DNA from: Abditibacteriaceae bacterium
GTDB lineage: Bacteria > Armatimonadota > Abditibacteriia > Abditibacteriales > Abditibacteriaceae
Reading direction: 5' to 3'
DNA length: 25,650 nt
Assembly (NCBI GenBank): GCA_031425655.1
Contig: JANPJS010000211.1
Coordinates: 1-25,650 of the forward strand
The position numbers were made by a program, and so were the translations under genes. Below the pieces are notes generated by a model that made no database searches, was not told the DNA's origin, and was given only the letters and a program-made list of their open reading frames with translations. How positions within the stretch are numbered: position 1 is the first letter of the stretch; every line of letters starts with the position of its first letter. Positions 9,184 through 16,093 of this stretch are shown one piece after another.

Positions 9184-9447
9184 TCACGCAGCGGCCAGTT
9201 GCTCACGGATTAGTTGGGTAGCTAAATCGCTCGTTGTTACGCCTTGCTGACGTGCTTTATCACGCAACGCTTGAGCCACACTCATATCAATCTCGACCTC
9301 GTAATACCGATTGCGACGTTCGGCATTCACTTCAACGGTCTGAAATGCATCAGGATAATCCATCGTATCGTGTGCATCCCAAAACTCGCCAGCTTCTTCC
9401 AAACTGTTGAAAGTGTCAGGGAGGGGGTCAATGTGCTTTTCGTTCAT
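9184..9447 (-). CDS. Antitoxin, CopG/BrnA-like (ribbon-helix-helix C terminus)
   Basis: 87 aa; F.SLEEAGEFWDAHD..DY motif and C-terminal ALRDKARQQGVTTSDL; AGGAG RBS; downstream of BrnT-like gene. Confidence 0.85.
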   Translation of the reverse strand: MNEKHIDPLPDTFNSLEEAGEFWDAHDTMDYPDAFQTVEVNAERRNRYYEVEIDMSVAQALRDKARQQGVTTSDLATQLIREQLAAA

Positions 9448-9721
9448 TGTAATATCTCCTTTCAGCTTAGGTCATGTCTCGTGCTGAAATGGGCAAGGCC
9501 GCAGACCCGTGTTTGCGGATGAAGAAAACAATCAAGTATCTACCGCCATCAATTTGGCCGTAAGCCGCGTAAACGTCTTCGCCTTCAACTTGGCCGTGCT
9601 CGACACGCCGGAAGTGCGATCTACTAAACAGAACTTCTTCAACTTCCTCAACCGAGACGCCATGCTTGACCGCAAGTTTCTCCACGAATTTTTCCTTCCA
9701 GATAACATCGTAGACTTCCAA
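9428..9721 (-). pseudogene. BrnT-family (DUF497-like) toxin with premature TAA at 9467-9469
   Basis: AAGGAG plus TTG 9721; KHGVSVEEVEEV, G....GRYLIVFF, PISARDMT then TAA then AERRYYNERKAH-TGA(9428) in the same frame. Confidence 0.8.
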
Positions 9722-9800
9722 AACTGTCTCCTTGCGGTTCTGATCATAGCAAGAAGTATACAATTTAAACGTAATAATTACAGCAACGCCGCGCGCTGCG

Positions 9801-10522: not shown

Positions 10523-10613
10523 GGCTAACGACCAAGCTCACCCGCCGCCGGAAGCGTAGCGAGGAGGAACGACGAGCGGACTGTAGGCGGTCGGGTGCAG
10601 CGCCTTGTTGTGC
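10523..10613 (-). repeat. attC site (91 bp)
   Basis: GCACAAC...GTTAGCC with the conserved arms. Confidence 0.92.
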
Positions 10614-10667
10614 CATTGTTAATGCCTACAAATTGTGTTTTGCAGGCAATTGACGAGAGCGAAGTTC

Positions 10668-10967
10668 TTATTTTGAGACAAACAAAAACATAACTTGATT
10701 CAGGTTGATCCACCCCTCCTCGAAGCCGCCCCAATCCTTGTCGGGAAATGTCACCTGCACCCATGCACCACGAACACCGCCATCTTTATGGCGCTCTATT
10801 TTGAAACTGGGCTTATCGGTGGTGTCTCCAGGGTGTGCAACCCCTGTGATGTAATAGACGGTATATTCCACGCCTTTTTCTAGTGGTGGAAGCAAAGATT
10901 CTGCCGACTCACTGCCACCTGGCGCGTTTACAACTTCGACCTTGATAGGTTCTGCAATTTGAATCAT
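10668..10967 (-). CDS. Cassette-encoded hypothetical protein (beta-rich C terminus)
   Basis: 99 aa; AAGGAG RBS; second gene of a two-gene cassette. Confidence 0.75.
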   Translation of the reverse strand: MIQIAEPIKVEVVNAPGGSESAESLLPPLEKGVEYTVYYITGVAHPGDTTDKPSFKIERHKDGGVRGAWVQVTFPDKDWGGFEEGWINLNQVMFLFVSK

Positions 10968-10987
10968 GGTGTGATTCTCCTTTTAGA

Positions 10988-11024
10988 ATCGAGCAGAGGT
11001 CTATGCGAGCAGCCTCTGCTCGAT
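10988..11024. other. Perfect 12-bp stem-loop between the two genes of the cassette
   Basis: ATCGAGCAGAGG (10988-10999) / CCTCTGCTCGAT (11013-11024). Confidence 0.75.
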
Positions 11025-11038
11025 CATCCGTTCTGTGT

Positions 11039-11158
11039 TCAACAGTCCCTGTTACTACAGGCATGAGCAACATCTGATGTTCCTGTTGAACTGGCAACAA
11101 AGTGAACGCCTGCGGCGACGGCCAACGCCATAACCGCGATGACAAACAGCTTTTTCAT
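11039..11158 (-). CDS. 39-aa secreted peptide precursor MKKLFVIAVMALAVAAGVHFVASSTGTSDVAHACSNRDC
   Basis: Read by hand (below ORF-track cutoff); AAGGAGG RBS, promoter upstream, signal-peptide pattern. Confidence 0.8.
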   Translation of the reverse strand: MKKLFVIAVMALAVAAGVHFVASSTGTSDVAHACSNRDC

Positions 11159-11186
11159 ATTCCCCTCCTTGTTCTAAATTGTTTCG

Positions 11187-11215
11187 ATTATAGCACTCAA
11201 AAAAGCTGCGCGCAA
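11187..11215 (-). promoter_or_regulatory. Cassette-internal sigma70 promoter TTGCGC-N17-TATAAT with extended -10 TG
   Basis: -35 at 11215-11210, -10 at 11192-11187 preceded by TGC. Confidence 0.75.
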
Positions 11216-11217
11216 TG

Positions 11218-11321
11218 GCACAACGACCAAGCTCACCCGCCGCCGGAAGCGCAGAGACCGAAGCGAGGAACGAGCGAAGGGAACGAAGCTGTAGGCGGTC
11301 GGGTGCAGCGCCTTGTTGGGC
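11218..11321 (-). repeat. attC site (104 bp)
   Basis: GCCCAAC...GTTGTGC. Confidence 0.93.
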
Positions 11322-12751: not shown

Positions 12752-13783
12752 TCACCATTTCGTCTTGGCCTTCTCAACACGGAACCATTGGACGTGTCCG
12801 CAGTTATCGCAGACAAGCATACGCCAGTCAGAACTAGTGAGGGCTTTGAATCCAACGAAATAGTAAAAGTCTTCATGGCTCGTTTTATTGATGTTATCTC
12901 CTGCCTTAACAGTCAATTGATAACTCCCTTGCCCACAATATAGACAAGGCTGGGGGACTTTAGAGCCAACCATATTATATTGACCCTTTAATAACTCGGC
13001 CATAGCTTTGAACGCGGTTAGAACCTCTTTCGCGTCCTGAAAACGCTTTTCGGGTTCCCGAACTACCATCCGGTCAAGGAGAAGATTTACACGCTCAAAT
13101 CTTCCATTCTTGTGTAGCCCTACCAAGTCAAAATGAGGCTGTCTAAAATCCTCGCGGCTCAAAACCTTTCCCCCACTCAACAAATAATAGAGCAGCTTCC
13201 CTAACGAATAAACATCAGCAGAAGGGAATATGTCATGAACTCCGCCATGCTCCAGTTCAGGAGCCATAAAAATGCGAGGCCCTACAATCTCACTTGTCTG
13301 GGTGAGACGGGCATCTTCCGATGAATACGCGATGCCAAAATCAGCTACGACTGCTGGCCCGCGCGCTTCTTTCAAAAGAATGTTTTGTGGCTTTATATCC
13401 CGATGAACGAAACCTTTAAAATGTGCTGCGGCAAGACCTACGCAAACATCTTCAAAGATTTGCAGAGCAAAGTTTAAATCTGAACTCCACACTTCTTTTT
13501 GTTTATCCAAGTTACCGCCAACGCATAGTTCGTAAACAACAAATGGAGGATTTGCATTTACATCATGCTCGACGGGACGGATAACGTTAGGATGTGCGAG
13601 CGTTTCGGAAATTTCAATTTCACGTCGAAAACGTTCGATAGCCTGCTCATCGCTTCGATTCGTAGTTTTGAGAGCATAATGTTGCGGATTGCCGTTGGCA
13701 CAAACGACTTCATATGCAGTTCCTTGACCGCCACCACCTAGTCGTCCTACTTCTTCCCAACGTCCGTTTCCAAATTTCATCAT
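12752..13783 (-). CDS. Cassette-encoded Hanks-type Ser/Thr kinase with C-terminal zinc ribbon
   Basis: GGGGQG loop, ALK, HRDIKPQN, DFG, APE, DVYSLG; CLYC...CDNC at C terminus; no TM segment. Confidence 0.93.
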   Translation of the reverse strand: MMKFGNGRWEEVGRLGGGGQGTAYEVVCANGNPQHYALKTTNRSDEQAIERFRREIEISETLAHPNVIRPVEHDVNANPPFVVYELCVGGNLDKQKEVWSSDLNFALQIFEDVCVGLAAAHFKGFVHRDIKPQNILLKEARGPAVVADFGIAYSSEDARLTQTSEIVGPRIFMAPELEHGGVHDIFPSADVYSLGKLLYYLLSGGKVLSREDFRQPHFDLVGLHKNGRFERVNLLLDRMVVREPEKRFQDAKEVLTAFKAMAELLKGQYNMVGSKVPQPCLYCGQGSYQLTVKAGDNINKTSHEDFYYFVGFKALTSSDWRMLVCDNCGHVQWFRVEKAKTKW

Positions 13784-13951: not shown

Positions 13952-13958
13952 AGCATTG

Positions 13959-14054
13959 TTAGCGGTGTGTAACGTCGAACACCCATCTGCCCAGAACAAC
14001 GCCGATTCCGGCAAACAAAATAGCTTTTGTGAGTTCAGTCAGAATGTATTCCAT
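13959..14054 (-). CDS. 31-aa single-TM microprotein MEYILTELTKAILFAGIGVVLGRWVFDVTHR
   Basis: Read by hand; AGGAG RBS; fills the 132-bp space between two attC sites. Confidence 0.75.
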   Translation of the reverse strand: MEYILTELTKAILFAGIGVVLGRWVFDVTHR

Positions 14055-14083
14055 TTGTCTCCTGCCACATTATTCGCAATGCG

Positions 14084-14175
14084 GCCCAACGACCAAGCTC
14101 ACCCGCCCGCGTAAGCGTAGCGAGGAGGCACGACGAGCGAAGCTGTAGCGGGTCGGGTGCAGCGTTTTGTTGTGT
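14084..14175 (-). repeat. attC site (92 bp)
   Basis: ACACAAC...GTTGGGC. Confidence 0.92.
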
Positions 14176-14815
14176 TGCAATGAGACAACATTTCGCGCCC
14201 GATGTATTCCGTAAACGCTGGCGGAACAGCTTGACTAAGCTCGTCTGGACTCATCCAATTTATCCCCATTGCCGCCGCGCCCGCCGCGCCTGATTTGCCG
14301 ACGTGCGAACACCAGCCCGACTCACTCGGTTTAGCGCGGTCATTCAGCATACGCCCTGAGCCGATAACGTGTTCATGTTTTTGGTGTTGCGGAACCATAA
14401 CCAAAAAATTGGCTTCAAAAAGCCGGTGTCGGTAAACCCGTAACCCAAACTGAGCACCACACAAACGAAATGCGCCGCTCATATCCTGCCACGCATCCTC
14501 TACGTTTTCAATCACGAACGGTAGGCCGGTTGCCTGCAATGCCGCCCGCGTCGGGCCGATGAGTAGAGGATAAATTTTGCCTTTGAGCCACGGTAGGTGG
14601 CGCATACGGCTATAACCCTGGCAAGGCGGCGAAGCGTGAATAGCATCAAATTCATGCCCGTGTTTCGCAACGTATTCAAGCGCATCGCCCTGAACAAACT
14701 GGAACGGATAGCGCGGCTGCTGAACACAATCAACGCCGACAATTTCATCGAAGCCGGCGCGATGGTAGCCCATCGCGCTACCTCCGGCACCAGAAAATAA
14801 GTCTAAGAGTTTCAT
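14099..14815 (-). CDS. Cassette-encoded DNA (cytosine-5) methyltransferase, short phage-like type
   Basis: Motif I LDLFSGAGG, IV ASPPCQ, VI IENV, VIII RHRLF, X SQAVPP; ORF reads into the attC. Confidence 0.9.
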   Translation of the reverse strand: MKLLDLFSGAGGSAMGYHRAGFDEIVGVDCVQQPRYPFQFVQGDALEYVAKHGHEFDAIHASPPCQGYSRMRHLPWLKGKIYPLLIGPTRAALQATGLPFVIENVEDAWQDMSGAFRLCGAQFGLRVYRHRLFEANFLVMVPQHQKHEHVIGSGRMLNDRAKPSESGWCSHVGKSGAAGAAAMGINWMSPDELSQAVPPAFTEYIGREMLSHCNTTKRCTRPATASLVVPPRYAYAGG

Positions 14816-15899: not shown

Positions 15900-15952
15900 G
15901 CTTTATATTCTGGTATGAAAGTGTGGCAGATGCAACCAAGCTGCGCGCGCCA

Positions 15953-16000
15953 GCCGAACTCTGAATTATGCCGCAAATCCACCAGTATTTGCGGCATAAT
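15953..16000 (-). other. attI-like recombination site with overlapping 14-bp inverted repeat
   Basis: Minus strand GCATAAT-TCAGA-GTTCGGC (L box, 5 bp, R box); ATTATGCCGCAAAT (15965-15978) / ATTTGCGGCATAAT (15987-16000). Confidence 0.65.
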
Positions 16001-16093
16001 CATGCTTTAATCCGAAGAAACCGCAACGCGAGAATATTTAACGTCTTCTCTGTGTTACAGCGCGCGATGCATTCAGGCGACACCGTATGAGCT

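Follow-up and report, generated by a model that had tools for sequence, protein, structure and literature searches.

Do two small open reading frames (ORFs) that share a short stretch of bacterial DNA, one resembling the precursor of a secreted peptide and the other an orphan, form a working pair, or are they the two halves of a gene that came apart? This question is raised by ORFs of 39 and 99 residues in the window, by which we mean the whole 25,650-nucleotide stretch of Abditibacteriaceae DNA analysed here. A first-pass annotation of the locus saw in them a possible disulfide-cyclised hexapeptide, acting as signal or toxin, with a partner protein. We favor the other answer at a probability of about 0.5: the locus would be a fissioned single-pass envelope protein, with its membrane anchor in one ORF and its barrel in the other.

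The elements that the first-pass annotation listed, namely AAGGAGG, a 39-residue ORF ending in AHA-CSNRDC and a stop, a perfect 12-bp stem, AAGGAG and a 99-residue ORF, are all present in the sequence, and this anatomy is beyond chance. Both ORFs, the stem, the Shine-Dalgarno sequences and a promoter candidate lie on the minus strand, as follows.

11187–11215, minus strand: promoter candidate of the sigma70 type, borne by the cassette (from the sequence; its spacing is shared with 20 of 62 leader-bearing cassettes)
11164–11170, minus strand: Shine-Dalgarno sequence AAGGAGG of the 39-residue ORF (from the sequence)
11039–11158, minus strand: 39-residue ORF with an MKK n-region, hydrophobic residues 4–22, a polar linker, AHA and C-x4-C, its N-terminal part being either a signal for export or an anchor in the membrane (from shuffles, codon score and a match to the membrane segment of the protein L033/P0015)
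10988–11024, minus strand: perfect 12-bp inverted repeat with arms at 11024–11013 and 10999–10988, −24.5 kcal/mol, no U-tract
10961–10982, minus strand: Shine-Dalgarno sequence AAGGAG (10982–10977) and a weak 6-bp stem on the start codon of the 99-residue ORF (stem z −1.6, not significant)
10668–10967, minus strand: 99-residue ORF with a linker-like start of about 25 residues, then a predicted five-stranded SH3/Sm-like small β-barrel, no signal peptide (from model and sequence)
10621–10650, minus strand: 10-bp stem between the stop of the 99-residue ORF and the attC site (z −1.7, no U-tract)

Judged from their sequence, both ORFs look translated. Dinucleotide shuffling of the cassette, repeated 5000 times, never produced an ORF of 25–70 residues that is signal-like and led by a Shine-Dalgarno sequence. 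The codon score in frame is 0.145 for the 99-residue ORF and 0.063 for residues 1–33 of the peptide, beside an in-frame mean of 0.066 for cassette genes. The 12-bp stem has a z of −4.2, and shuffling the spacer 2000 times never gave 12 bp; a further hairpin, on the CSNRDC codons, falls short of significance (z −1.6). Some details of the first description need amending. The shorter ORF had been reported as missing from the ORF track, while it is a called protein in the protein collection (P0005), and the motif WVQV...GWINLNQV is found in the longer ORF but is followed by seven more residues instead of ending it. An assembly error at 10585–11248 is unlikely, since a Logan contig repeats this segment with 0 differences, although the contig's run could be the very one from which this DNA was assembled.

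What kind of unit carries the two ORFs? It is one integron gene cassette of the mobile kind, bounded by attC sites. The earlier wording 'two-gene cassette' had two ORFs in one unit right and overlooked this nature. The sites that define it are given below.

11218–11321, minus strand: attC of the preceding cassette, whose core site GTTGTGC (11224–11218) is the 5′ junction of the two-ORF cassette
10523–10613, minus strand: own attC of the two-ORF cassette, with the inverse core GCACAAC (10613–10607)
15936–16080, minus strand: attI-like site at the head of the array, resembling the site beside the integrase on contig C103

The attC sites at both ends have cores of the GTTRRRY type, and the 5′ core and the 3′ inverse core with its flank are complementary across 12 bases, which is a sign of an intact cassette. 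The array holds ten attC repeats between 9057 and 15269, and the two-ORF cassette is the eighth of ten counting from attI. There is no integron integrase on the window's contig; the only one of the genome is encoded on contig C103 (TIGR02249, 428 bits). On the contigs compared, joints that might have pointed to excision or reordering are accounted for by other cassettes with shared attC. The unit resembles the CALINs described in PMC4889954 in several ways: attC sites bound it, its core and inverse core complement each other, it belongs to an array of ten attC sites, IntI is encoded elsewhere in the genome, and its content is orphan. It differs from them in that the array retains an attI-like site and in that this cassette combines two ORFs with a promoter candidate, which the paper describes as rare.

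The genome as a whole has 66 attC matches on 32 contigs and at least six attI-like sites (15936–16080 of the window and others on contigs C103, C193, C100, C314 and C63) against one integron integrase. Several arrays have attI but lack intI, and these may be served in trans. Among the neighbours in the array are a toxin-antitoxin pair, a Ser/Thr kinase and a DNA methylase. The pair fills the last cassette (9184–9763, minus strand) and consists of a BrnT-family toxin, whose ORF stops directly after an ISARDMT motif and may be shortened, and a CopG antitoxin. The kinase (12752–13783, minus strand) has a C-terminal CxxC...CxxC element and finds its best PADLOC matches in the PD-T4-6 and MADS kinase models, which makes it a possible defence cassette. 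The methylase (14099–14815, minus strand) is a short C5 cytosine methylase whose ORF runs into its own attC, with a Pfam match limited to the N-terminal 107 residues. A 132-bp cassette at 13952–14083 (minus strand) encodes a hydrophobic ORF of 31 residues with a good Shine-Dalgarno sequence.

The promoter has to be read against this background. Its description as near-consensus holds for the −10, a perfect TATAAT (11192–11187) preceded by TG and therefore extended (TG-n-TATAAT), but not for the −35, TTGCGC at 11215–11210, which matches the consensus at 3 of 6 positions, stands at a 17-nt spacer and lies within a conserved cassette leader. A consensus promoter scan did not include this TTGCGC/TATAAT pair in its list. 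The leader, about 20 nt long and following the core site (GTT-N5-GCTGCGCGCRGCTT-like), is present as a strict box in 62 of 147 cassettes of G000 and its relatives (L272–L348). A −10-like hexamer stands 17–19 nt downstream of the leader's xxGCGC in 20 of these 62, whereas no other spacing has more than 5; the cassettes are not independent of each other. Because the leader puts a −10 at the same spacing in so many of them, the promoter is no distinguishing mark of this cassette; cassettes of this lineage may commonly bear a promoter of their own.

In the collections searched, neither ORF has a close relative. The 99-residue protein retrieved only itself (2 candidates) among 5.8 billion proteins, and itself plus three long repeat proteins, judged chance, in a single-sequence search of 1.84 billion representatives. 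In 400 genomes of the phylum it gave five weak matches, none credible, of which three were translated and proved unrelated, and it had no match in viral contigs, plasmids, phages, PDB sequences or the Atlas. An alignment search kept just its own 3 members out of 53 candidates, and a profile retrieved mainly SH3b-like half-domains of larger proteins. Among the matches to GW[IV]NLNQV, inspection recognised none of the 5 viral ones and 1 of the 34 from metagenomes as a barrel look-alike. The 39-residue peptide likewise found only itself, with no second example in 401 genomes of the phylum, the protein collection, plasmids or phages. Its motif matched twice in viral and nine times in genome scans, all by chance. 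Among the at least 120 matching stretches listed in the viral scan, one was an open frame, and it was not hydrophobic; of 35 matches in Pseudomonadota, 30 were examined and none was a signal peptide with a stop; and the 8 non-self matches in the host's order included no similar peptide. A family of similar peptides, which we take to occur in Alphaproteobacteria, was not found there in a thin sample, and a candidate on C181 was rejected as it overlaps the start of a long gene. The 207 attC-linked segments listed from relatives (119 of them bounded on both sides) held no similar peptide or barrel. No homologue with a conserved AxA or Cys pair was seen in these searches, which leaves both genes orphans, and the two-ORF cassette matched nothing in Pfam, NCBIfam, PHROGs, PADLOC or Rfam. 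The genome is itself isolated: when ten window proteins were looked up, nine proved to be singletons at 90% and the tenth was absent from the collection.

A modelled structure offers a further view on the longer ORF, which is probably a small SH3/Sm-like β-barrel, the model being of low confidence. With two look-alikes, L033 and L062, in a three-row alignment, AlphaFold2 predicts five strands and a 3-10 turn (pLDDT 56), a low-confidence, linker-like stretch at the start and no C-terminal helices; a model from the single sequence (pLDDT 48) had no meaningful fold match. Searches of three fold libraries returned mostly small β-barrels in their top rows (MscS middle domain, RimP, Hfq, WYL, NdhS, SH3), the best match reaching Z 5.8 and rmsd 2.3 over 59 aligned residues, with scores that are low and tied. 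MazF and ToxN folds are not among the best 50 rows. Foldseek gave one match at E 7.5e-4. The structure prediction and Foldseek search that had been proposed for the partner suggest a fold class, the small barrels, and point to no function. The protein has no export signal (maximal 19-residue hydropathy 0.55).

Where else do such barrels occur? L033 (P0015) is a protein of 170 residues with a membrane segment, a helical stalk and a barrel, and was one of four matches to a degenerate motif, as against three in the control; L350 and L351 are relatives of it that were found later. Together (as L033/L349, L350 and L351) they form an unnamed family from planctomycete-phylum genomes that combines a membrane segment, a coiled stalk and a small barrel; in the two proteins scanned, no Pfam family scored above cut-off for the barrel. 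L062, the one look-alike among the 34 matches to the C-terminal motif, belongs to an ECF sigma factor in which a similar barrel follows a hydrophobic segment and makes up the C-terminal domain; the part of PMC7826278 consulted contains no description of a domain of this type. In all four look-alikes (L033, L062, L350, L351) a hydrophobic segment precedes the barrel. They share with the 99-residue protein the P-x-x-x-G-V start of the barrel and its W-x-x-V and W-I-N/D-x-x-Q-V strands, and L033 also has a G-V-x-F-V-A at the end of the membrane segment. This similarity is of borderline significance. When the four were combined in a profile that left out the window sequence, the 99-residue protein came out on top among 136,474 genome ORFs (E 0.045), a rank inflated by the choice of L033 and L062 through the protein's own motifs; profiles from L350 and L351 alone place the peptide at rank 35 and the barrel at rank 421 of 6002.

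Are the two ORFs, then, what is left of such a protein? Their similarities are collinear with the two ends of L033. Residues 4–24 of the peptide match its membrane segment with a BLAST E of 2e-4, at a local score of 49, where 882 hydrophobic N termini average 22.6 (sd 5); the sole control at 49 is L033 itself, and the best of the 881 others reaches 41. Read through with X at the breaks, the two ORFs score 64 against L033 (0 of 3000 shuffles), compared with 36 for the 99-residue protein alone (134 of 3000). Since L033 was picked by the barrel motif alone, the match of the membrane segment, noticed by eye, is independent evidence. It is not repeated in the relatives, L350 being equalled by 120 and L351 by 278 of 882 controls, and the support that these comparisons lend to a split gene appears independent but modest. 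L033-type proteins are moreover one polypeptide with a long helical stalk, whereas here two ORFs are separated by a frameshift and two stops, which a fusion would have to remove.

The DNA between the ORFs bears on the age of such a split. It looks intergenic. The rate of an internal Shine-Dalgarno sequence with ATG is about 1% for every 30 codons; a perfect 12-bp repeat was present in 47 of the 652 intergenic windows screened and in 1 of the 338 coding ones; and a two-Cys tail followed 229 of 200,000 simulated frameshifts. Each of the three is rare in decaying coding DNA, and they count against a recent decay. The codon score of the gap is neutral (likelihood ratio 0.8–1.2), and the middle of L033 is matched equally by another frame (26 and 26). 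The two stops in the frame of the 99-residue ORF flank the 3′ arm of the 12-bp stem, so that a single inverted duplication could have yielded the stops and the stem together.

If the cassette is a fissioned gene, its ancestor would have begun with a membrane anchor or a signal, continued through a short stalk and a Pro-rich linker, and ended in a small β-barrel displayed beyond the inner membrane, the architecture of the planctomycete look-alikes. The cassette promoter would now give one short transcript. From it, the 39-residue stub would enter the Sec pathway with its tail outside, to be cleaved or degraded, and its two-Cys tail could be closed by a VKOR-type system of the host. The barrel would be translated from its own Shine-Dalgarno sequence, partly occluded by the weak stem, and would stay in the cytoplasm for want of an export signal, severed from an ancestral binding role in the periplasm. 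The pair may be a dead relic or may have been domesticated. The attI and attC sites shared with contig C103 suggest that the IntI encoded there could move the cassette in trans.

How close does the pair come to known peptide systems? Precursors of Rap/Phr and arbitrium AimP (RRNPP) have about 40 residues, a signal-like N terminus and a short C-terminal peptide, and the 39-residue ORF is alike in all three. It is set apart by a diderm host, recognised as such by its Omp85 gene, by the Cys pair, by the mobile cassette and by a cassette without receptor. The last point agrees with the first-pass annotation: the cassette holds two ORFs only, and RNPP_C (PF18768), the one family used in the genome-wide RRNPP search, was not found in the 97% complete genome, in keeping with the statement that this is no standard Rap/Phr or arbitrium pair. 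The CxxxxC/bufferin precursors of MNIO (DUF692) enzymes, set beside our ORF by their description in PMC12452194, also combine a Sec signal with C-x4-C; here, however, the partner is a small barrel and not DUF2063, and no MNIO gene adjoins. The MNIO family (PF05114) had no match in the genome, while the positive control, Caulobacter, was matched. With neither RNPP_C nor MNIO found in a genome of this completeness, the two nearest known systems are removed.

A possible though clearly less probable account keeps the first-pass idea of a genuine module of secreted disulfide peptide and barrel partner. Signal peptidase I would free CSNRDC or, by cutting further upstream in the chain, a peptide of 16 residues; oxidation in the periplasm would close the disulfide ring; and the product would act as a signal, a metal-binding or an antagonistic peptide. 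The stem would hold the partner at a lower level, and the barrel would bind the precursor or the re-imported peptide. The separate Shine-Dalgarno sequence of each gene, the intergenic type of the stem and the rare two-Cys tail speak for it, as do the export-like N terminus, the Sec-signal precursors with CxxxxC motifs beside MNIO enzymes, a VKOR homologue with a possible role in disulfide formation in the periplasm, and family-5 solute-binding proteins (PF00496) in the genome, which may or may not serve the re-import of oligopeptides. The peptide also has an ESM Atlas recognition value of 2467, and unnamed 38-residue clusters at 0.86 and 0.83 are leads only. The AHA triplet is the commonest AxA in signal-like N termini of the host (about 11-fold enriched), but it lies 19 residues past the best h-window, against 2–14 in 53 host cases. 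It ends at residue 33, an extreme position among the host's cases (1 of 53), which makes release of CSNRDC uncertain; a cleavage after residue 23, or none, would be equally plausible. A-H-A-C is no canonical lipobox. Neither DsbB nor a DsbA-like Thioredoxin_4 was found in the genome, which also shows neither MNIO nor RNPP_C, and the genomes, protein collection, plasmids, phages, motif scans and attC-linked segments searched gave no second example. The partner, without an export signal, would end up in another compartment than the peptide. Of the proposed hexapeptide with partner there remain ORFs that look translated, the export-like N terminus, the AHA enrichment and VKOR, while its release and the meeting of the two products are in doubt. 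This account and the favored fission overlap if an old fission was domesticated. Unlikely is the fullest version, in which a mobile, integron-borne unit encodes a Sec-exported disulfide hexapeptide signal or effector and its barrel binder, perhaps born by fission, with no modifying enzyme or RRNPP receptor; a literature search confined to articles without their supplements found no such module.

The ORFs could also be unrelated passengers of one cassette, the first encoding a small microprotein that is secreted or sits in the membrane, the second a cytoplasmic binding protein of the Sm/SH3-like type; their products would not interact, and the stem would be an element of RNA stability or pausing. 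Multi-gene and tiny-ORF cassettes in the genome, including the 31-residue hydrophobic ORF of the same array, the Hfq, RimP and WYL barrels among the top fold rows, and the higher share of signal peptides in cassette proteins (16.1% versus 6.8% in PMC10661359) all fit. The collinear match to L033 is left unexplained, however, and the fold matches score poorly, none above Z 5.8, and are tied; we hold this to be distinctly unlikely. Highly improbable is a cassette of the toxin-antitoxin kind, in which either a small hydrophobic product would be a type I toxin or the barrel a toxin of the MazF/ToxN type, checked by upstream RNA. Its own promoter, the hairpin and the small hydrophobic ORF recall such systems, which are frequent in these arrays, and MazF-type toxins have an SH3-like barrel. 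Yet the model of the 99-residue protein lacks C-terminal helices, and many of the cassettes compared have the same promoter layout. Within the cassette, the promoter scan listed nothing in antisense orientation, there is no repeat array, and the family databases named above, Rfam included, gave no match.

What would follow for the biology of these cassettes? Were the peptide module real, it would represent peptide communication or defence in a diderm, moving by integron recombination without RRNPP receptor or tailoring enzyme. If the favored fission is true, the pair would be an ordinary product of cassette turnover, and a warning that a split gene can look like 'signal peptide and short tail, then orphan'.
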